This document shows positions 9,561-17,126 of a DNA stretch of 18,292 bases, piece after piece. The notes under the pieces are model-generated. The model ran no database searches. It saw only the letters and a program-made list of their open reading frames with translations, and was not told the DNA's origin. Origin of the DNA: Staphylococcus phage SeAlphi; sequence record MZ152915.1. The stretch is one strand, 5' to 3'. How positions within the stretch are numbered: position 1 is the stretch's first letter; every line of letters begins with the position of its first letter. The position numbers were made by a program, and so were the translations under genes.

Positions 9561-10974
9561 TAAAGAAAAAATTGATAAGTTTATACATTCCAATTTAAAT
9601 GATGATTTTGGGTTAAGTGTTGATGATTTAGTACCTAAAGTTAAGGGTATTGGACGATTTCAAGCGTGGTGTGGTAATGATTCAAGCAAAATTAGGCAGG
9701 TCTTGAATGCAGTTAAAAGCATTGGGGTATCACCTGCATTATTTAGTGCTTATGAAAAAAATGAGGGCTATAATGGTAGTTGGGGTTGGCTTAACCATAC
9801 AACACCACAGGGTAATTATTTATCAGACGCACAATTTGTTGCACGTAAACTTGTTTCTCAATCTCGTCAAGCAGGTACACCCTCATGGATTGACGCAGGA
9901 AATCCCGTAGACTTTGTGCCTGCAAGTGTAAAAGCAAAAGGTAATTATGATTTTTCACATAATATGAAAAATGGTAAAGTCGGTCGTGCATATATTCCAC
10001 TGACTGCAGCTGCAACTTGGGCTGCATATTATCCTGAGGGATTACAAGCAAGTTATAACCGAGTACAAACATATGGAAATCCATTCTTAGACGCTTCAAA
10101 CACGATTTTAGCTTGGGGTGGTAAAATAGACGGAAAAGGAGGTTCAAGTAGTGGTTCAAGTAGTTCTAGTGGTTCTAGTGGTGGGCTTGATGTTGTGGCA
10201 CGTGCCTTTGAAGAATTTCTCAAAAAATTACAAGACAGTATGCAGTGGGATTTGCATTCTATTGGTACTGATAAATTTTTTTCTAATCAGATGTTCACCA
10301 TTACAAAAACATACAATAACACCTATCGTTTAAACATGAATCAAAAATTACTTGATGAAATGAAAGACTTAATATCAAGAATTGACGGTGGTAGTGGTAG
10401 TGATACAGGTGCCGATGATAGTGAGGGTGGCGCAGATAAAGGGGGTAAATCAGTTGCACCTAATGGTAAAAGTGGACGTGTGATTGGTGGTAACTGGACT
10501 TATTCTCAATTACCACAAAAATATAAAGACGCAATTGACGTGCCACTATTTAAACCTAGTTATCTAAATAACAGTGGTAATACATTTCCGAGGTTTGGTA
10601 ATACAGGTCAATGTACAGAATTGACACAGTGTTATATGACACAATTACATGGTAAAGTACAACCTGCCGACGACGGACAAGTCACAAACGGTCAACGTGT
10701 GTGGGTGGTATATCGTAATCGTGGCGCACGTGTCACACATCGACCAACAGTTGGCTATGGATTTAGTAGTAAACCCCCTTATTTACAAGCCTCATTACCC
10801 GGTGTCGGACATACGGGTGTCGTAGTAGCAGTATTCAAAGACGGTTCATTTTTAGTAGCCAATTATAACGTGCCACCTTATTGGGCACCTAGTCGTGTTG
10901 TTGAATATACATTGATTGACGGTGTACCTGAAAATGCAGGGGATAATATTATGTTTTTTAGTGGCATTAAGTAA
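9553..10974 (+). CDS. Virion (tail-tip) peptidoglycan hydrolase: N-terminal glycosidase-like domain, Gly/Ser linkers, C-terminal CHAP peptidase domain
   Basis: The likely start is the ATG at 9553, which has a GAGGGTGG RBS and overlaps the holin stop by 8 nt. The ORF track instead starts at 9529. The C-terminus has a CHAP signature (GNTGQCTELTQCYM ... GVGHTGVVVAVFKDGSFLVANYN, the Cys/His catalytic pair). There are two flexible linkers (GGSSSGSSSSSGSSGG; GGSGSDTGADDSEGGADKGG). The two-domain tail lysin architecture parallels phi29 gp13. Confidence 0.8.
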   Translation: MNDKEKIDKFIHSNLNDDFGLSVDDLVPKVKGIGRFQAWCGNDSSKIRQVLNAVKSIGVSPALFSAYEKNEGYNGSWGWLNHTTPQGNYLSDAQFVARKLVSQSRQAGTPSWIDAGNPVDFVPASVKAKGNYDFSHNMKNGKVGRAYIPLTAAATWAAYYPEGLQASYNRVQTYGNPFLDASNTILAWGGKIDGKGGSSSGSSSSSGSSGGLDVVARAFEEFLKKLQDSMQWDLHSIGTDKFFSNQMFTITKTYNNTYRLNMNQKLLDEMKDLISRIDGGSGSDTGADDSEGGADKGGKSVAPNGKSGRVIGGNWTYSQLPQKYKDAIDVPLFKPSYLNNSGNTFPRFGNTGQCTELTQCYMTQLHGKVQPADDGQVTNGQRVWVVYRNRGARVTHRPTVGYGFSSKPPYLQASLPGVGHTGVVVAVFKDGSFLVANYNVPPYWAPSRVVEYTLIDGVPENAGDNIMFFSGIK

Positions 10975-10980
10975 AAATTA

Positions 10981-10989
10981 TGCTATAAT
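10981..10989 (+). promoter_or_regulatory. Extended -10 element TGCTATAAT downstream of the last late gene
   Basis: Perfect TGnTATAAT match 7 nt after the lysin stop. The only thing it could drive is an approximately 110-nt untranslated segment ending at the bidirectional terminator. Confidence 0.3.
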
Positions 10990-11069
10990 ATAAGTATGCT
11001 AGAACATTCTAGTAAATAAACAACAAAACATAATCCGTATGGCAAACGTCACTTGTCACTATACCTCGT

Positions 11070-11107
11070 AAAAAAAGACGCTACTATCATGTAGCGTCAT
11101 TTTTTAT
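11070..11107. terminator. Bidirectional rho-independent terminator at the convergence of the late (+) and early (-) operons
   Basis: A7 run, then stem GACGCTAC (11077..11084) pairing with GTAGCGTC (11091..11098) around a TATCAT loop, then ATTTTTTAT. It is symmetric, so it terminates both strands. The DNA polymerase stop codon sits in the loop. Confidence 0.75.
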
Positions 11108-13378
11108 ATCTTGATGAACCATATATAAAATATTAATATCACATTTATTTTTAATTTCAAATTGATAAGGAAATAGATCACTAAATGAAAATGCGCCAAC
11201 ATCACTTTCAATGTATAATATATCATCGTCATTGACATCATCATATTCACGTCTTGCTTGTTTTAATACATCTTCTTTTCTATCCTCTAATTCTTTAGTG
11301 AAATAATAATCATAAGGCGTACCTTTTTCAATATATGTTTTTGACGGGTAAATAGATATTGTTTTTTGTTCGTTATAAATGGATTTATTGTTATACACAA
11401 TTGCTTTATGGTGAAAATCATTTTTAATAAAATTTTCAAAAGATTGATTCTTATTAAATGCGTCTAATGGAATACCTGCACTGGCAATTTTAATTGTGTT
11501 ATCTTCTTTTTGGTAGGCGTACTTTTTATGATTGAGTACATACATTTTTTTAATGACATGATTTTCTATATCCCACTTACCTAATGCAATAGGGTCAAAT
11601 AATTCATCATTTAATTTATGTTTAATTTTTGATTTTAAATATAAACTGTCAGTATCACAATATATAAAGCAGTCATCTATTTCAGATTGTGTTAGAGACT
11701 TTAATGGTTCAAGTAAATTATAAAGGGCTTGTGATGTCACAAAAGTAGAAAATAATAAATTACGTTCACTGTTTTTATATCCATTTTCATGGTTAACTAA
11801 AAAACCGTCCTCATCACGTCTAAACAAATTAAAATGTGACCGTAAAGCAGGTATACCATACAGACCATTTAAAACAACTTTACTTAACATGATTTCTTCT
11901 TTTGAATAAGTATGTGTATTGACTTCATCAGTGATCGTGTAATTATAGGGTGAATCCATAATGATTTTTTTATCTAATTTACCTTGCGTTTTGATGAAAT
12001 AATTATGATGAATAATATCACGAGCGCCAAAGTATTCACATTCATAGCACACAAAAGCAAACACTTTTATTTTGTCAAAAGTTAAACCCGTTAAATCTTC
12101 AATCATGCGTAAAGTGTTTGTATTTATATTAACAAACTTTTTGTCATTATTGTAGTATTTAACAAGACATTGCTTAATTAAATCACTTTCAATATTTCTT
12201 AAAATAGTACGATTAAATGTGACCTTATCCATTTTATAAAGTGAAAAATAATCTTTATTGGTTAAATCAATGTGTATCGTTGTCGGTTGTTCATATTCAT
12301 CAAAATCATAAATATACATCGGTAATTTTTCATGATACATCACATAGGGATAACTACTATTTATGTCTATTGAAAAACATTCCTCATTGATGATTTTATC
12401 AACATAACGTGAATTATACATATTTAATCCACCACGATAGAAACCCTTAATAAAGTCATAAAAATTCATATCAAAAAAAGTAAAATCTGTGTATGATATT
12501 TTTTGCTTTCCTTTTTGGTTTAATAATTGTAAGCGTGTTGTTTCATTATTGATATAACTTTTCATAATATTAACACTAAAGGTCATTGCACTATAATCAA
12601 AATTAGGGAATATATCACTATAATGTATGTGGCACATACCTAAAATAATGACATCGTTTCTAATATAGGTCATTTGTGATTCTGTAAGTTGATGAAAACA
12701 TTCATATGCATAATCATAGGCTTGTGTATCTGTCATATCATGTTCTACATCAAACACATCATATTGAAAATCAGTTTTTAATTCATCTTCACTAATATAG
12801 CCACCGTCTTTGAGCTTTTTACCTAATGTAGCGATTGATGTATTTGTTTTCATAAAATTATCTATAATATTAAATTTAAATCCTTTTAAATACATCATTA
12901 AATCTAAATTGATACTTGATTTAACACGTTTTTCTAATATAACATTGGTTTCTTTAGATAATAATTTTGCTTCATTCATATTAATTGTGTTTGAATTATC
13001 ATCAGCACTTTTCATATATAAATTTTCAATAATCAGATCATCACTGAAAAAATGTTGTGTATCGTGTAGTAAAAAGTGATTATCATATTTATTACAGTTA
13101 TGTGCTATCATGTTGATTGTCGTTTTTGATTTAGTGATGGTGTCACGTCTTTTTGCATAATCAAAAAAAGATTGATAAAATGCTTTAAAACTAGGAAAAA
13201 CTTCAACATCAATATGTTGTCCGTCATACCAACCAATAGCAAGACTATAAGTCACATTTTTATATTTAGTTGGTTTTTCTCTTCCTGCTACCTTATTATA
13301 GTTTAATGTTTCAATATCCCAATAAAGATATAAATTTTTTTGACCTTTATGTTTTTGCATTGCTTCTAATAATCCCAT
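11087..13378 (-). CDS. Protein-primed family-B DNA polymerase (phi29 gp2-like)
   Basis: 763 aa. Exo I is WDIET, Exo II is AHNCNKYDNHF and Exo III is YIRNDVIIL. Motif A is DINSSYPYVMY, motif B (Kx3NSxYG) is KVVLNGLYG, motif C is YCDTDSLY, and KxY-like is LGKWDIE. These closely parallel phi29 polymerase motifs (YIKNDIQII, DVNSLYPAQMY, KLMLNSLYG, YCDTDSIH). RBS is AGAGGTG. Confidence 0.95.
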   Translation of the reverse strand: MGLLEAMQKHKGQKNLYLYWDIETLNYNKVAGREKPTKYKNVTYSLAIGWYDGQHIDVEVFPSFKAFYQSFFDYAKRRDTITKSKTTINMIAHNCNKYDNHFLLHDTQHFFSDDLIIENLYMKSADDNSNTINMNEAKLLSKETNVILEKRVKSSINLDLMMYLKGFKFNIIDNFMKTNTSIATLGKKLKDGGYISEDELKTDFQYDVFDVEHDMTDTQAYDYAYECFHQLTESQMTYIRNDVIILGMCHIHYSDIFPNFDYSAMTFSVNIMKSYINNETTRLQLLNQKGKQKISYTDFTFFDMNFYDFIKGFYRGGLNMYNSRYVDKIINEECFSIDINSSYPYVMYHEKLPMYIYDFDEYEQPTTIHIDLTNKDYFSLYKMDKVTFNRTILRNIESDLIKQCLVKYYNNDKKFVNINTNTLRMIEDLTGLTFDKIKVFAFVCYECEYFGARDIIHHNYFIKTQGKLDKKIIMDSPYNYTITDEVNTHTYSKEEIMLSKVVLNGLYGIPALRSHFNLFRRDEDGFLVNHENGYKNSERNLLFSTFVTSQALYNLLEPLKSLTQSEIDDCFIYCDTDSLYLKSKIKHKLNDELFDPIALGKWDIENHVIKKMYVLNHKKYAYQKEDNTIKIASAGIPLDAFNKNQSFENFIKNDFHHKAIVYNNKSIYNEQKTISIYPSKTYIEKGTPYDYYFTKELEDRKEDVLKQARREYDDVNDDDILYIESDVGAFSFSDLFPYQFEIKNKCDINILYMVHQDIKNDAT

Positions 13379-13402
13379 GTTCTACACCTCTAATCAAAAA
13401 AC

Positions 13403-13431
13403 ATTATATCATAAAAAAAGCAATATGTAAA
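13403..13431 (-). promoter_or_regulatory. Sigma-A-type promoter for the DNA polymerase gene (TTTACA-N17-TATAAT with TG extension), minus strand
   Basis: Minus-strand reading is TTTACAtattgctttttttaTGaTATAAT. The -35 lies at 13426..13431 and the -10 at 13403..13408. The -35 sits within the 3' arm of the hairpin that follows the ATPase gene. Confidence 0.5.
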
Positions 13432-13446
13432 AACTTTACACATTGC
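13420..13446 (-). terminator. Hairpin overlapping the packaging ATPase stop codon (attenuator)
   Basis: Minus-strand GCAATGTGTAAA-gttt-TTACATATTGC forms an 11 of 12 bp stem, followed by a U7 run. Confidence 0.4.
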
Positions 13447-14695
13447 TTATAAATGATTTTACTAGATTTTTTTTAGTTCTTTCAATGTAGTTATCATGAT
13501 ACATTTTTTCTTTTTGTTCAAAAGGTTGATAACCTTTTTTGTTACGTTCTGTTTTTAAATGATACTTTATAATCTTGTTCATGTTTAAATGAATAAAATC
13601 GTCCTCATTGAGTATAAATGATTTACTGTATGCATTATCAAAATGAAGATTTGAGGGGTTATAATAACGCCTTTGATGATTATCTTTATAAAATGATTCT
13701 TTTAAAAATAATGCACCATGTTCAACATCTGATACATCAGTACAAAACTGGTAATTTTCGGAATAGGGTACAACTTTAATATTCGTTTGATAATCATTTA
13801 AGTTATACATCACTTTAATATAATTATAGGGTGTTTTGATATGGAAAAAGTTTCCATTACTTGATATGTGCGCCCTCAAATAATCATCTGCTAAATTAAA
13901 TGTATTAAAATCAAATTCACCTGTTGTCATAGAATCATCATCAGTATTAAATGCACGTGTGTTACGATTCTCATTAGAAAATTCATTTCTTCTCATCTCA
14001 AGCATGATATTACTATACTGACGTTTGCTATTCATACCAAATTTTGAGTGATGTTGTAATTGTTCATAAATATTTAAGTTTGCGAGTAGTGGACTAGAAA
14101 AGTTTACTGCATTTCCTAGTAATACAATTTTAGGTATTTTGATATATTCAATATTACCATGGTTACGATCAATACTTTCATATATGGTTTTCAACTTTTC
14201 CCACTCATCTATGAGGTAATCGCTTTCTAATGCTAAAAACTCATCATAAATAATGATAGGAAAATTCTTCATAAAGTTAGAATGATATTTTAAATCGGTT
14301 GCATTATTAAGGTGAGTAATAATACCAATTTCTTTATCACCATAACCCACTGCAATATAATCTTGCGTATTTCTAAAAAATAAATCTTTATCATTAAAAT
14401 GTTTTTGTTCAATACATATTCTTTCAAGTAATTCACGATAAGCGTCACGCAATGTATGATGTCTTGCTAGTAAAGTAAACTTAATATCTAAATCAATAGC
14501 TAACTTCATAAAAAATGCAACATAGTTAAATGTTTTACCGTCTGAACGGTTGGATATGGAAATTAAAAAATCAATATCTAAATTCATTAAGTCATCTGCA
14601 AGTTCAATTTGGTTATATTGTTTGGGAATAGAACGTCTAAACTTAGTGACAAAATTTTGATAGTCTTTGACTTCATTTAATCGTGACTTTTTCAT
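13436..14695 (-). CDS. DNA encapsidation (packaging) ATPase, phi29 gp16-like
   Basis: 419 aa with an AAGGAGG RBS. A deviant Walker A is present near the N-terminus (SNRSDGKT) and a Walker B about 100 aa later (IIIYDEF). It is adjacent to the polymerase gene, as in staphylococcal picoviruses. Confidence 0.65.
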   Translation of the reverse strand: MKKSRLNEVKDYQNFVTKFRRSIPKQYNQIELADDLMNLDIDFLISISNRSDGKTFNYVAFFMKLAIDLDIKFTLLARHHTLRDAYRELLERICIEQKHFNDKDLFFRNTQDYIAVGYGDKEIGIITHLNNATDLKYHSNFMKNFPIIIYDEFLALESDYLIDEWEKLKTIYESIDRNHGNIEYIKIPKIVLLGNAVNFSSPLLANLNIYEQLQHHSKFGMNSKRQYSNIMLEMRRNEFSNENRNTRAFNTDDDSMTTGEFDFNTFNLADDYLRAHISSNGNFFHIKTPYNYIKVMYNLNDYQTNIKVVPYSENYQFCTDVSDVEHGALFLKESFYKDNHQRRYYNPSNLHFDNAYSKSFILNEDDFIHLNMNKIIKYHLKTERNKKGYQPFEQKEKMYHDNYIERTKKNLVKSFISNV

Positions 14696-14753: not shown

Positions 14754-15257
14754 TTAACCCACCTGTCTAACATAATAGACAACGTTGTATTTGACTTGTT
14801 TTTTATTCACAATACTATCTACTTTTGTAGCTTCTTCAAGTTCTTCAAATAGTTCTTCCGTTGATTTAATAAAGTGGGATATTTCTTGTGAACCGTCATT
14901 GTCTTTAACTGCTTCTTGGAATAAGTGGCGTTTGTGCATATTACCTTTTTGTTCCCAATCATAATCAAGTTGTTTATAGACATTTTCTATTTCTGTTAAC
15001 TTTTCTTGGTTTTTACCACTCACTAAACTTTTAGCGTCATTATATGCAATCTTTTTTGGTTTGGGTAATTTGACTTTACCTTTTTCAACAAATAGGTTGT
15101 TAAAATGATTATATTCATGAATGTATTCTTTTTGTAATTCTTCATCATCAAATAAAAAAACAAAACCGTCACGTTCATAGGTTGATTGTTTTTTTGTTGT
15201 GGATTCCCTAAAAGCATTTGAACGTGCAATACGATTACTTTTGTTCCCTCTTTTCAT
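14754..15257 (-). CDS. Hypothetical early protein with strongly basic N-terminus (candidate DNA-binding or terminal-protein-like)
   Basis: 167 aa. The N-terminal 30 aa is K/R-rich (MKRGNKSNRIARSNAFRESTTKKQ) and the C-terminal half is acidic. RBS is GAGGTG. No recognisable catalytic motif. Confidence 0.45.
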   Translation of the reverse strand: MKRGNKSNRIARSNAFRESTTKKQSTYERDGFVFLFDDEELQKEYIHEYNHFNNLFVEKGKVKLPKPKKIAYNDAKSLVSGKNQEKLTEIENVYKQLDYDWEQKGNMHKRHLFQEAVKDNDGSQEISHFIKSTEELFEELEEATKVDSIVNKKQVKYNVVYYVRQVG

Positions 15258-15267
15258 TGTCTACACC

Positions 15268-16497
15268 TCAATCAAAATTTTTATGATATGTTTCTGCAAT
15301 GCGATAATACATCATTTCATGACCCCATTTTGTTGGGTGTAAACCGTCTTTCATAGACGATTGTCTAAATTTTTCATCATAAGGATTGATTAATGAATCT
15401 TCATAAGCGTTATATAAGGCTAATCCTAAATCTTTAGTTGCTTTCACTTGTGAATCAACATAAGTTTTTAATGTATAACCTTTTTTATTCTTATCTGTAT
15501 CACGTCTTATAACTTTTCCTGTATCATCAATTTTAGCTTGTTTCGTTGGTGTAATTACAACGATTTTAGCTTTTGAGTTATTTTCTTTAACCGTATCTAC
15601 AACCTTATAAAATGCACCGATATATGTTTTTGTATCAGTAAGTTTATTACCTACTTCAACACCTGCATTTGAATTAAACAACCAATCATCATCAGTACCC
15701 TGTATAATCACGAGTTCATTATCTTTGAGTTGTTTAGCTTGATTTAATATATTATTGTCTTTAACTTCACTCATTGTAGCACTGCTTACTGATAAGTTTT
15801 GAATTTTTGCACCTGTTTTTTCTTTGATGTAATCACCAAAGTTATATGAAGCATGCGCGCCTTTACCCACACTGTCACCAATGATTCCAACAGATTTAAC
15901 ATATTGTATTGATGAAACGGGTGTATAATCTTTCATTACTGTACCATTTAATGTTTTAATGGTTCTCACTTTTGGTGTATGTTCTTCTGGTGGTAGGGGT
16001 TTTGTATCAGGTTTCTTATTTGGTGGTGTCACGTCTTGTTCTGTTTTATGTGGGTATGTTCCACTCGCTTTATTATGTGGGTAAATATGCTTATTCTGAT
16101 TAGCTTCATATTCAAATTGATGATACATATATTCATCAATGAGTTGTCCGTCTTTATAAATCAATATATGTGAATCATCATCATTAATTAACCAAATATC
16201 TGATGTTGTATTTAAAAATAATAAATCCTTAATAGCAATATTTTGATGTTCACGATAATTTCCGTACATATCTTTCTCTAGGAAATAGTCAATCGGTGTA
16301 TTTAATGTGATTTCAATTTCTTCTATAACATTAAATAAATCATTTTTGTTTATAATATAGGTTTCTACTACTGCACTATGGTCAAATATTACATATGAAC
16401 CATTATTTGAGTGAAACTTTTCAGATGTTACACCATTACGCCACGCCCAATCAACCAATTCATTTAAATGTAATTTCATTTGATGTTTAATTATCAA
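15268..16497 (-). CDS. Two-domain protein: unknown N-terminal domain, Pro/Lys-rich linker, C-terminal SGNH/GDSL-family hydrolase (esterase/acylhydrolase)
   Basis: The C-terminal domain has SGNH block I (GIIGDSVGKG, nucleophile Ser in GDS), a central QGTDDDW block and block V (DGLHPT, the catalytic Asp-x-x-His). The linker is PPNKKPDTKPLPPEEHTPK. The probable start is the in-frame TTG at 16497, 8 nt after GTGAGGG, whereas the ORF track extends to the GTG at 16512. Confidence 0.6.
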   Translation of the reverse strand: MIIKHQMKLHLNELVDWAWRNGVTSEKFHSNNGSYVIFDHSAVVETYIINKNDLFNVIEEIEITLNTPIDYFLEKDMYGNYREHQNIAIKDLLFLNTTSDIWLINDDDSHILIYKDGQLIDEYMYHQFEYEANQNKHIYPHNKASGTYPHKTEQDVTPPNKKPDTKPLPPEEHTPKVRTIKTLNGTVMKDYTPVSSIQYVKSVGIIGDSVGKGAHASYNFGDYIKEKTGAKIQNLSVSSATMSEVKDNNILNQAKQLKDNELVIIQGTDDDWLFNSNAGVEVGNKLTDTKTYIGAFYKVVDTVKENNSKAKIVVITPTKQAKIDDTGKVIRRDTDKNKKGYTLKTYVDSQVKATKDLGLALYNAYEDSLINPYDEKFRQSSMKDGLHPTKWGHEMMYYRIAETYHKNFD

Positions 16498-16732
16498 AAT
16501 ATTTTCCCTCACTTTCTAAATCATTAAGAATATGCGTAATTTCAAATAAAGCATTTTCTAATTTATCTCTTTGTTCTTTTGTTAAATCGTAATCATTGAG
16601 AGCGTTAACAATATTATAATATGCTTTAATCAAATTCATGTAATCACTCCTTTTATAATTAACGATTGAAACAAGTATTAAAGCAATTATACCATATAAA
16701 CATAATCCTATTGTAACGATTGTACCAAACAT
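16487..16732 (-). CDS. Small membrane-anchored early protein (N-terminal TM helix + helical cytosolic domain), phi29 p16.7/p1-like role possible
   Basis: 81 aa. The N-terminal FGTIVTIGLCLYGIIALILVSIV is a clear single TM segment, followed by a K/R flank and a predicted helical acidic domain. It is translationally coupled to the downstream SGNH gene. Confidence 0.5.
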   Translation of the reverse strand: MFGTIVTIGLCLYGIIALILVSIVNYKRSDYMNLIKAYYNIVNALNDYDLTKEQRDKLENALFEITHILNDLESEGKYFDN

Positions 16733-16735
16733 AAA

Positions 16736-16945
16736 CTAAACCCCTTTATAAGAATTAACATCAATCACAATATTAATAGTACCGTCTTTATCAGTAATTG
16801 TTATATACTCACATTTAATATCATCAAGAAATTTTAGTGTACGACTTAAATATTTTTTACTTCTTTGACAAAGCACAACAAATCCTTTATTCATAGCATA
16901 GGCTTTTTCTAATACATCAATAATACTTTTTTCAAACGATAACAT
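16736..16945 (-). CDS. Hypothetical early protein (69 aa from internal Met)
   Basis: The ORF track starts at 16975, but that ATG lies inside a terminator hairpin. The second ATG at 16945 has a GGAGTGA RBS 6 nt upstream and is the more plausible start. Confidence 0.4.
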   Translation of the reverse strand: MLSFEKSIIDVLEKAYAMNKGFVVLCQRSKKYLSRTLKFLDDIKCEYITITDKDGTINIVIDVNSYKGV

Positions 16946-16957
16946 TTTTATCACTCC

Positions 16958-16990
16958 ATAATAAAAAGGAGGCATTGCCCCCTTTATTCA
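16958..16990 (-). terminator. Rho-independent terminator / attenuator inside the early operon (also hairpin-capable on the plus strand)
   Basis: Minus-strand GGGGGC-AAU-GCCUCC (6 bp, one G-U pair) followed by UUUUUAUUAU. On the plus strand it is GGAGGC-ATT-GCCCCC followed by TTTATT. Confidence 0.55.
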
Positions 16991-17044
16991 GTTTTTATTA
17001 AAATGGTAAATCTTCATCACTAATATCAATTGGTTTAGTAGAAC

Positions 17045-17126
17045 GAGCGAACGGGTTACGTCGCTCATATACTACTTTTTTTCAGATTCAGGTTCAGGCT
17101 CACTATATAACGGGTTACGTTGCTCA
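17045..17126. repeat. Direct repeat of an 18-nt motif AACGGGTTACGT(C/T)GCTCA (copies 17050..17067 and 17109..17126). The first copy is embedded in a GAGCGA/TCGCTC hairpin.
   Basis: 17 of 18 identical, 59 nt apart. One copy encodes the C-terminal EQRNPLY of the 144-aa protein. The other lies just past its stop, inside a 6-bp-stem, 10-nt-loop hairpin (17045..17066). Confidence 0.8.

Follow-up and report, generated by a model that had tools for sequence, protein, structure and literature searches.

Several kinds of short RNA bear comparison with the element described here. The c4 RNA of phages P1 and P7 acts in trans to cover the ribosome-binding site of its target, lambda OOP RNA and P22 sar RNA are short phage antisense RNAs, and RNAIII and RsaE are staphylococcal small RNAs (sRNAs) with C-rich anti-Shine-Dalgarno motifs. 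Small RNAs that derive from 3' untranslated regions (3' UTRs) and have their own internal promoter form another class, as one review sets out (PMC9438474). Packaging RNA (pRNA) has been described as a peculiarity of phi29 and its relatives among the Bacillus phages (PMC11476376); for Cp-1 it is a proposal only (PMC6266182), and for asccphi28, a phi29-like phage, the published account finds "no evidence for a pRNA" (PMC7823558). Here, we analyse Staphylococcus phage SeAlphi (MZ152915.1; the whole 18,292-base stretch is referred to as the window), and focus on a 112-nucleotide (nt) gap between its late and early genes. Comparison of this sequence with its relatives indicates that the gap very probably holds a real and conserved RNA gene. 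We regard it as possible, at a little under an even chance, that the product is a trans-acting antisense sRNA of about 110 nt, which would pair with the leaders of the DNA-polymerase and terminal-protein messages and would do so also as part of the late-mRNA 3' UTR.

The gap (10975–11086) is the point at which two blocks of genes converge. Late genes for structure and lysis occupy the plus strand up to 10974, where the stop codon of a CHAP tail-lysin gene ends, and the minus strand, between about 18057 and the stop codon of the DNA-polymerase gene at 11087–11089, holds the early genes for replication and packaging. A preliminary description had singled out these 112 nt after the last late gene, and they are indeed the longest internal non-coding stretch: the next measures 96 nt (16976–17071) and the rest no more than 59 nt, the two genome termini apart. 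Internal intergenic DNA as a whole makes up 2.6% of the window genome.

An extended −10 element (TGCTATAAT) is present at 10981–10989, exactly where it had been placed, and starts 7 nt past the lysin-gene stop. Together with a −35-like GTGGCA (4 of 6 positions matching; 10961–10966), which lies within the final lysin-gene codons at a 17-nt spacing, it forms a candidate plus-strand promoter at 10961–10989. A generic promoter scan is uninformative here, the genome being AT-rich (133 sites found, 122 expected). The strict extended −10 pattern, TGNTATAAT, occurs at 4 sites genome-wide; 3 of these lie in short internal intergenic regions, all correctly oriented, each toward a gene or the 5' hairpin of the gap RNA. 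At the far end is a strong bidirectional intrinsic terminator (11077–11105), with a stem of GACGCUAC (11077–11084) and GUAGCGUC (11091–11098), a UAUCAU loop that contains the polymerase stop codon, and then A and U6. Flanked by A7 (11070–11076) and T6 (11100–11105), it can terminate in both directions, as had been claimed for it. Between these signals a plus-strand sRNA of about 111 nt is predicted, from an A located 7 nt past the −10 (10996) to the terminator U-tract (about 11106), and these putative limits agree with the transcript of some 110 nt proposed before. The sequence 10996–11106 doubles as the 3' UTR of the late operon: since sequence analysis finds no terminator between the last late gene and 11077, the late mRNA carries the sequence of the gap RNA at its 3' end.

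The same gap layout is found in Andhra, S-CoN_Ph32, DSP1 (S. pseudintermedius), P68, Portland, and PT1-9 (S. chromogenes), as well as in other Rosenblumvirus genomes, in IMG/VR and metagenome contigs, and in contigs fetched through their neighbouring ATPase gene (loci given by L numbers below). A covariance model of the promoter, 5' hairpin, and A-rich stretch, built from 14 sequences and called R1, matches the window at 10978–11039 with 82 bits, and finds exactly one copy per complete genome in the window, P68, and Andhra. Overall, 42 loci match R1 at E < 1e-4, with further matches in loci added later. The 5' half of the gap is 75–88% identical between the window and P68, compared with 59% for the aligned genomes overall. 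Specifically, the extended −10 (TRTGNTATAAT) is invariant or almost so in 35 aligned relatives, and its spacing to the hairpin is fixed. The covariance analysis that the preliminary description had named as a check thus finds the element conserved, and its core idea of an independently transcribed, plus-strand small non-coding RNA gains strong support from the comparison with relatives, as a prediction from sequence.

The conserved extended −10 and the terminator delimit a short predicted transcript that is non-coding. Because relatives carry 1-nt insertions or deletions and the peptides are not conserved, we exclude coding of the gap. A small peptide, made either from a leaderless 7-codon open reading frame (ORF) at 10996 or from a minus-strand ORF of 16–20 codons, might be suspected from the ATG at the predicted transcription start, from the short ORFs on both strands, and from the small coding sequences that automatic annotation calls here in some relatives. 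This is scarcely credible, however: the first-ATG peptide has 7 residues in the window, about 31 in P68, and 8 in DSP1, while PT1-9 has no ATG; the plus-strand ORFs are not preceded by a Shine-Dalgarno site, and those on the minus strand lie downstream of the polymerase terminator. The earlier statement that no ORF exceeds 7 codons is true for the first ATG only, as there is a 10-codon ATG ORF at 11039 and minus-strand ORFs reach 20 codons.

The predicted RNA (10996–11106) has a folding energy of −28 kcal/mol (z = −6.2), with the same order of parts in the minimum-energy and centroid structures—i.e. a 7-bp hairpin from the second nucleotide, 22 unpaired nt, a weak middle hairpin, and the terminator. 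Folded without its terminator, the RNA has a z of only −2.0. The other intergenic regions of the window have no notable fold potential (|z| of 3 or less, vs. −5.3 to −5.8 for the gap). In the 5'-terminal hairpin (10997–11014, plus strand), UGCUAGA (10997–11003) pairs with UCUAGUA (11008–11014) around an ACAU loop. The preliminary description had written it as CTAGAA-cat-TTCTAG; the hairpin is there, with a loop of CA and not CAT. More broadly, its observation is partly confirmed, the promoter, this hairpin, and the terminator having been placed correctly with small errors in the details.

Relatives support the 5' hairpin in several ways. Among 26 distinct sequences, 97.8% of its cells are paired, both sides have changed at 3 of the 7 pairs (C-G to U-A; L056 and L057 have the U.G intermediates), and a control in which one arm is shifted by 1–3 columns cuts the pairing to 13–54%. 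The hairpin therefore covaries, with the compensatory changes that had been proposed as evidence of RNA structure. It is also the sole consensus structure that RNAalifold returns for 14 full-length sequences, from which the middle hairpin is not recovered. One pair is G.U in 20 of the 26 sequences, and G.U and U.G pairs are frequent in general; because a G.U pair would read as a C/A mismatch on the opposite strand, the hairpin is a plus-strand structure. The arms are 2 to about 45 nt apart among relatives, a variable spacing that fits an RNA hairpin and suits a dimer-bound DNA operator poorly. Long versions, found in PT1-9, L021/L061, L056, L059/L115, L111, L134, L136, and L137, have an additional upper stem that is rich in compensatory changes (GGUUAG/CUAACC, GGUAGG/CCUACC, and GGAUAGG/CCUAUCC) and share a conserved apical loop, ACGAUAAAAA(N)GUUGUG. 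A search with the pattern of this loop, GACGATAAAA..GTTGTGC, retrieved a copy of L021, a copy of the L059-type gap RNA, and one further picovirus contig (L111). Separately, avoidance of CTAG was considered as a reason for the sequence of the hairpin arms and rejected, as CTAG is not under-represented (18 observed, 20.4 expected).

These features bear on whether there is a separate gene at all. The gap could be the 3' UTR and terminator of the late operon together with a conserved DNA element, its −10 being non-functional or, e.g. a shared protein-binding site. Late transcripts do have to cross the gap before they terminate, the generic promoter scan is not above chance, and the motif GAGGTRTAG, which the gap shares with two leaders, could be a DNA motif. 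Yet the extended −10 and its fixed distance from the hairpin are kept while the flanking coding DNA diverges, and the arrangement of promoter, hairpin, and terminator occurs again in tandem in relatives. The variable distance between the arms and the G.U pairs also favour RNA over a DNA operator, and the gap copy of the motif is antisense to both leader copies. We consider the absence of an RNA gene improbable on these grounds.

What the RNA might act on is suggested by its CU-rich anti-Shine-Dalgarno motif (11059–11076, plus strand). All forms of the RNA have such a motif directly before the terminator; in the window it reads CUAUACCUC (11059–11067), followed by GU and the A-run at 11070–11076, and in relatives AAACCUCUCUUAAUU, AACCCUCCUUUAAUUG, or AAACCCUUUAAAAUUG. 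The window motif is complementary to GAGGUGUAG over 9 bp, one of them G.U. At the DNA level, the 9-mer GAGGTGTAG occurs exactly twice in the window genome, with 0.01 copies expected, and the two copies are the Shine-Dalgarno regions of the polymerase and terminal-protein genes. The looser GAGGTRTAG occurs 3 times (0.09 expected), adding the gap copy alone, which is antisense to the copies in the leaders. The first proposed target is thus the DNA-polymerase leader (13379–13411, minus strand), which has GAGGUGUAG at 13382–13390, an extended −10 (TGATATAAT) at 13403–13411, and the start codon at 13376–13378. The second (15258–15273, minus strand; GAUUGAGGUGUAGACA, with GAGGUGUAG at 15261–15269) is the leader of a 167-residue gene (14754–15257) that is a homologue of Andhra gp7, the 5' terminal protein (PMC9710869). 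The duplex with the polymerase leader is predicted at −15.3 kcal/mol and that with the terminal-protein leader at −16.8 kcal/mol, and the A-run of the RNA is predicted to pair as well with the U-run of both. The two leaders (13379–13396 and 15258–15275, minus strand) are nearly identical in the Andhra-like clade, with the form UUUUGAUU(A)GAGGUGUAGA..AUG, but not in P68, and this near-identity suggests co-regulation of the two replication proteins.

The complementarity to a translation-initiation region co-varies across species, for both the polymerase and the terminal protein, and this has statistical support. Perfect complements of 9–11 bp occur in the independent lineages L125, L144, L136, L137, and L115. 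For example, the polymerase leader of L125 (UUUUAAAGGGU) matches its RNA motif (ACCCUUUAAAA) over 11 bp, and that of L144 (UAUAUUAAAGG) matches CCUUUAAUAUA perfectly over 11 bp. Pairs of 10 bp are formed in L136 (UUAAAGAGGU with ACCUCUUUAA) and L137 (AGAGAGGUUU with AAACCUCUCU), one of 9 + 4 bp, aligned by eye, in L115 (AGCAAUUAA-GGAG with CUCCUUUAAUUGCU), one of 8 bp in L134 (AGAGAGGU with ACCUCUCU), and one of 9 bp including a G.U in DSP1 (GGUGUGGUA with UACUACACC). L144, which has lost both the 5' hairpin and the A-rich stretch, keeps the complement to its own polymerase leader.

We compared the 60 nt before the terminator of each RNA with the polymerase leader of every phage in a permutation test. 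Own leaders pair better than those of others across 10 lineages (P = 1.5e-4 for the Watson-Crick run, 2e-3 with G.U pairs, and 4e-4 for duplex energy), and also across 13 lineages that include the non-pairing L142 and L138 (P = 6e-5 and 4e-5; about 1e-4 once near-duplicates are removed), although these values are indicative only, because the lineages are related and the 60-nt segments were picked by eye. With 8 RNAs, the effect is found for the polymerase leader (P = 0.021 for the longest match and 0.025 for duplex energy) and for the terminal-protein leader (P = 0.005 and 0.011). Control leaders of the ATPase, holin, and tail-knob genes give P ≥ 0.59 on both measures, and those of the lysin gene give 0.67 for the longest match and a borderline 0.049 for duplex energy. 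By duplex energy, the polymerase leader ranks 2/19, 1/21, 4/23, 1/14, 1/13, 6/12, 3/14, and 2/13 within the 8 genomes—i.e. among the top 4 of all genes in 7 of them—and other replication-gene leaders are often adjacent in rank.

This tracking of each phage's own leader favours what the preliminary description had offered as a fallback, a late-stage antisense or regulatory RNA, and makes it the reading that the comparison of sequences points to. That the RNA acts specifically on the polymerase and terminal-protein leaders we hold more tentatively still, and several further points speak against antisense control of the leaders. The window itself offers only modest pairing (9 bp, of which one is G.U; −15 to −17 kcal/mol), and the weak middle hairpin partly ties up the 5' half of the motif (unpaired probability of 0.2–0.6 at 11059–11064; 11065–11068 are free). 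Part of the complementarity is generic (CCUC:GAGG), because GAGG is common to all Shine-Dalgarno sites. L142 and L138, which have a different gap RNA, show no such pairing, and it is weak in L135 and PT1-9. A literature search for RNA-seq, Northern, or 5'-end data from Rountreeviridae found none, the effect may be repression or activation, and the part of the RNA that is conserved best, its A-rich stretch, is not accounted for by pairing with the leaders.

The A-rich stretch (11014–11035, plus strand) reads AAAUAAA-CAAC-AAAACAUAAUC, with its core, AAAACATAATC, at 11025–11035; at 11015–11036 the unpaired probability is about 1.0. The pattern AAAUAAA-N4/5-AAAACAUAAUC is invariant from S. aureus phages to those of coagulase-negative staphylococci, and is missing from L144, L125, and L021. 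We found no partner for it in phage genomes: the best duplex with the phage genome is no better than shuffled controls, 8 phage genomes have no positionally conserved site, and the 7-mers that match polymerase codons 2–4 in some phages are at chance level. A scan for host or distant copies with AAATAAN{3,6}AAAACATAATC was uninformative, the matches listed including unrelated AT-rich genomes. Given the lack of a conserved partner in phage genomes, the stretch may have a host RNA or a protein as its partner. It is thus conceivable that the sRNA is real but has its function in the A-rich stretch, through pairing with a host RNA or through binding or sponging of a protein, the complementarity to the leaders being secondary or incidental. 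The invariance of the stretch, its fully unpaired state, and the missing complementary site in phage genomes speak for this. Against it, L144 keeps the polymerase-leader complement and not the stretch, L125 and L021 also do without the stretch, and the co-variation with each phage's own leader has statistical support. We consider such a function unlikely, though of all the alternatives to leader pairing it is the one we take most seriously, and it could also exist in addition to leader pairing.

The core of the A-rich stretch also takes part in a perfect 10-nt inverted repeat, of ATTATGTTTT at 10948–10957 in the last lysin codons (plus strand) and AAAACATAAT at 11025–11034, which could mask the stretch in read-through late mRNA. 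We set this repeat aside, since it is not conserved beyond the Andhra-like clade (P68 and DSP1 lack it) and its left copy is constrained by coding. Between the A-rich stretch and the CU-rich motif is the weak and variable middle hairpin (11037–11064, plus strand; GUAUGG.../...CUAUAC), which includes the direct repeat GTCAC-TT-GTCAC pointed out earlier. The repeat is present at 11046–11057, but is not conserved and has no evident significance: the first copy reads GATAC, GACAC, or GAAAC in relatives, and because it varies even among close ones we give it no weight.

We propose the following mechanism, a hypothesis backed by comparison among relatives. Transcription of the plus strand would be carried out by host sigma-A RNA polymerase, directed by the extended −10 at 10981–10989, and would start at 10996 and end at the bidirectional terminator. 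The 5' hairpin, 1 nt from the 5' end, would probably guard against 5'-end-dependent decay and so stabilise the RNA. The CU-rich motif would pair with the GAGGUGUAG Shine-Dalgarno regions of the polymerase and terminal-protein mRNAs, and would thereby alter, in all likelihood lower, the translation of the two proteins of protein-primed replication. Because the late mRNA brings further copies of the anti-leader sequence in its 3' UTR, the dose of that sequence would rise late in infection, possibly giving a built-in late shut-off of replication-protein synthesis.

Not all lineages have the element. Homologues of the polymerase, ATPase, portal, and capsid genes are present in L062/63, L073/77, L074, L132, and L139, yet the gap in these is 11–22 nt or a bare terminator, and an R1 search of 13.5–14 kb of L132 and L139 (all but 1.5–3 kb of each genome) found no copy. 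An absent or unconserved gap had been named as grounds for abandoning the RNA; the gap is in fact conserved in many relatives and missing in some lineages. In Rountreeviridae of Tetragenococcus, Enterococcus, Streptococcus (C1), and Lactococcus (L040–L044), the genes that come after the polymerase gene share its strand, which makes the convergent gap and its RNA a feature of staphylococcal Rakietenvirinae alone. The most reduced form is that of L144 (5582–5663), an 82-nt gap with a TTGACA-17-TATACT promoter and a short RNA devoid of 5' hairpin and A-rich stretch.

This distribution bears directly on the reading that the preliminary description preferred, a phi29-type pRNA. On that view, the RNA would be a diverged phi29 pRNA, or else a structurally unrelated analogue, that bridges the portal and the 419-residue ATPase on proheads. 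The phage belongs to a wider phi29-like group that packages DNA bearing a terminal protein, the gap is one of few non-coding regions, its RNA is conserved, and no other intergenic region has fold potential; moreover, outside Bacillus phages pRNA is only a proposal, for Cp-1 (PMC11476376, PMC6266182). However, an Rfam scan of the whole window on both strands, at E up to 10, gives no pRNA match anywhere in the genome and no match of any kind in the gap, nor is there a match in nine related loci, where permissive thresholds yield, as in the window, only sub-threshold look-alikes of terminators. The fold has no helix A joining the 5' and 3' ends and no three-way junction, is mostly unpaired, and is reduced to the 5' hairpin alone in the consensus of 14 sequences. 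Loops vary freely (ACAU, AAU, UCAUU, AUUA, GAAA, and inserts of up to about 45 nt) with no conserved complementary loops, the short forms of the RNA have no second conserved loop, and the relatives without the RNA have the same gene order and packaging genes.

The packaging ATPase (419 residues; 13436–14695, minus strand) is matched by no Pfam family and by no PDB sequence, and belongs to a PHROG "terminase" family. Its AlphaFold model (mean pLDDT 80.7) is closest to gp11 of asccphi28 (E = 3e-11), the phage with no evidence for a pRNA (PMC7823558), and then to phi29 gp16 (E = 3e-8); in the model, most of its larger size is a C-terminal helical extension (about residues 372–417). The case of asccphi28 also removes the premise that phi29-family phages need a pRNA, and with no Rfam match, the wrong fold, absence in relatives, and this ATPase model, a phi29-type pRNA is unsupported. 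The further statement that none had been described for staphylococcal picoviruses holds, as far as a literature search goes: it found no RNA gene (sRNA or pRNA) and no transcriptome for Rountreeviridae or staphylococcal picoviruses, although some queries were swamped by unrelated papers. Probably, these phages do without a pRNA, as asccphi28 does. We see very little chance that the gap RNA acts in packaging at all, and the particular version in which it is a structurally unrelated analogue, with the ATPase assembled on it and the A-rich stretch as the protein-binding site, seems to us just as far-fetched. If true, it would extend RNA-dependent packaging beyond the Bacillus phi29 group.

Many relatives have a second, tandem small transcription unit between the first terminator and the polymerase terminator, which is absent in the window. 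On the minus strand of the respective contigs it occupies L133 6310–6636, L134 6002–6343, L135 5701–6037, and L137 5613–5923, and it is also present at about 700–830 in L058 and L006. The unit has its own extended −10, a hairpin (GUGGAC..GUUCAC), a conserved AUAUAUUUUACUUACGA, and a terminator. After the hairpin, L133, L135, and L058 carry CACCUCCUUUCU, an exact match to the anti-Shine-Dalgarno sequence with which 16S rRNA ends, and PT1-9, L134, and L137 have diverged versions of it. A distant lineage (L022–L030, L064–L072, and L142) carries a different gap RNA past the polymerase gene, GAUUUAAAC..GGNNCGGAAANNCC, with a covarying stem. The same lineage has 0–2 copies of a structured insert of about 85 nt (GGAGACATACAG...CACGTGAAAACAACGAGCG...GTTGACCACGAAAG) with no Rfam match; as it is found also upstream of the promoter or past the terminator, it looks like a small mobile element.

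As a whole, the window comprises the complete genome of a Staphylococcus picovirus of Andhra type (Rountreeviridae, Rakietenvirinae, Andhravirus). Over the 701 bases tested it is 99.7% identical to S-CoN_Ph30, and the 97 GenBank phage records that match it are all from Staphylococcus. A scan for tRNA and tmRNA genes found none. The fourth site of the strict extended −10 pattern (TGGTATAAT; 16686–16694, minus strand) is inside ORF 16487–16732, upstream of the GDSL-hydrolase gene (15268–16512), and is possibly an internal promoter. Within the 96-nt intergenic region, a hairpin flagged as terminator-like (AAAGGGGGCAAUGCCUCCUUU; 16965–16985, minus strand) sequesters the Shine-Dalgarno sequence and start codon of ORF 16736–16975, using codons 2–4 of that ORF, and possibly serves in translational control or as a dual terminator and ribosome-binding-site element.

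Staphylococcal picoviruses (P68, 44AHJD, Andhra, and relatives) are favoured for phage therapy on the grounds that their genomes of 17–18 kb are thought to be fully explained, a picture that a conserved and unannotated RNA gene alters. If leader pairing holds true, the gap RNA would be the first known regulator of replication genes in Rountreeviridae, acting by masking of ribosome-binding sites, and the presence of the same sequence in the late-mRNA 3' UTR would make for a simple shut-down of replication once morphogenesis starts. The analysis also bears on the open question of packaging, to which it gives indirect support for a process without pRNA. The group that isolated Andhra has reportedly described CRISPR-Cas10 editing of virulent staphylococcal phages, and with an element this small and predictions this sharp, direct tests should be feasible.

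Among known RNAs, the phi29 pRNA (RF00044) resembles the gap RNA in being a small non-coding RNA of a small podovirus that packages DNA with a covalent terminal protein, and in its transcription by the host polymerase from a strong promoter, which would hold for the gap RNA too. It differs in most other respects. pRNA is 120–174 nt long and highly structured, comprising helix A, a three-way junction, and loops through which copies pair with one another, whereas the gap RNA is mostly unpaired; pRNA is encoded at the left genome end and the gap RNA at the central point of convergence; and, unlike pRNA, the gap RNA is dispensable in related lineages and has no match to pRNA in sequence or structure.

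By mechanism, the closest known case is c4 of P1 and P7. Both are phage-encoded RNAs of about 80–110 nt, in which short unpaired stretches are proposed to pair with ribosome-binding regions of phage mRNAs that come from elsewhere in the genome. However, c4 is processed from the transcript of its own target and controls an antirepressor in a temperate phage, with an unrelated sequence and host, while the gap RNA, found in a strictly lytic phage, would be made from a promoter of its own and has replication genes as its proposed targets. OOP and sar are likewise short promoter-to-terminator transcripts in a compact regulatory region, convergent to a coding gene. They act in cis on the overlapping transcript; the gap RNA, by contrast, overlaps the polymerase mRNA only at the shared terminator, and its proposed target sites are 2.3 and 4.2 kb distant.

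In gene layout, the gap RNA is like the 3'-UTR-derived sRNAs, its sequence existing both as a predicted sRNA and as an mRNA 3' UTR, with a candidate promoter that begins in the last codons of the upstream gene and a terminator shared with the late operon. That class is known from bacterial chromosomes, mostly as Hfq-dependent enterobacterial sRNAs, and not from a lytic phage of a Gram-positive host. In its motif, the gap RNA is akin to RNAIII and RsaE, which also have a short C/U-rich stretch proposed to pair with Shine-Dalgarno sequences in Staphylococcus; these use UCCC in hairpin loops, whereas the motif of the gap RNA, (A)CCUC(U)C-UUAA, is linear and adjoins the terminator. The gap RNA is homologous neither to c4 nor to the 3'-UTR-derived or staphylococcal anti-Shine-Dalgarno sRNAs, and falls in no Rfam family. 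We therefore class it as a new family within an already known kind of regulator.

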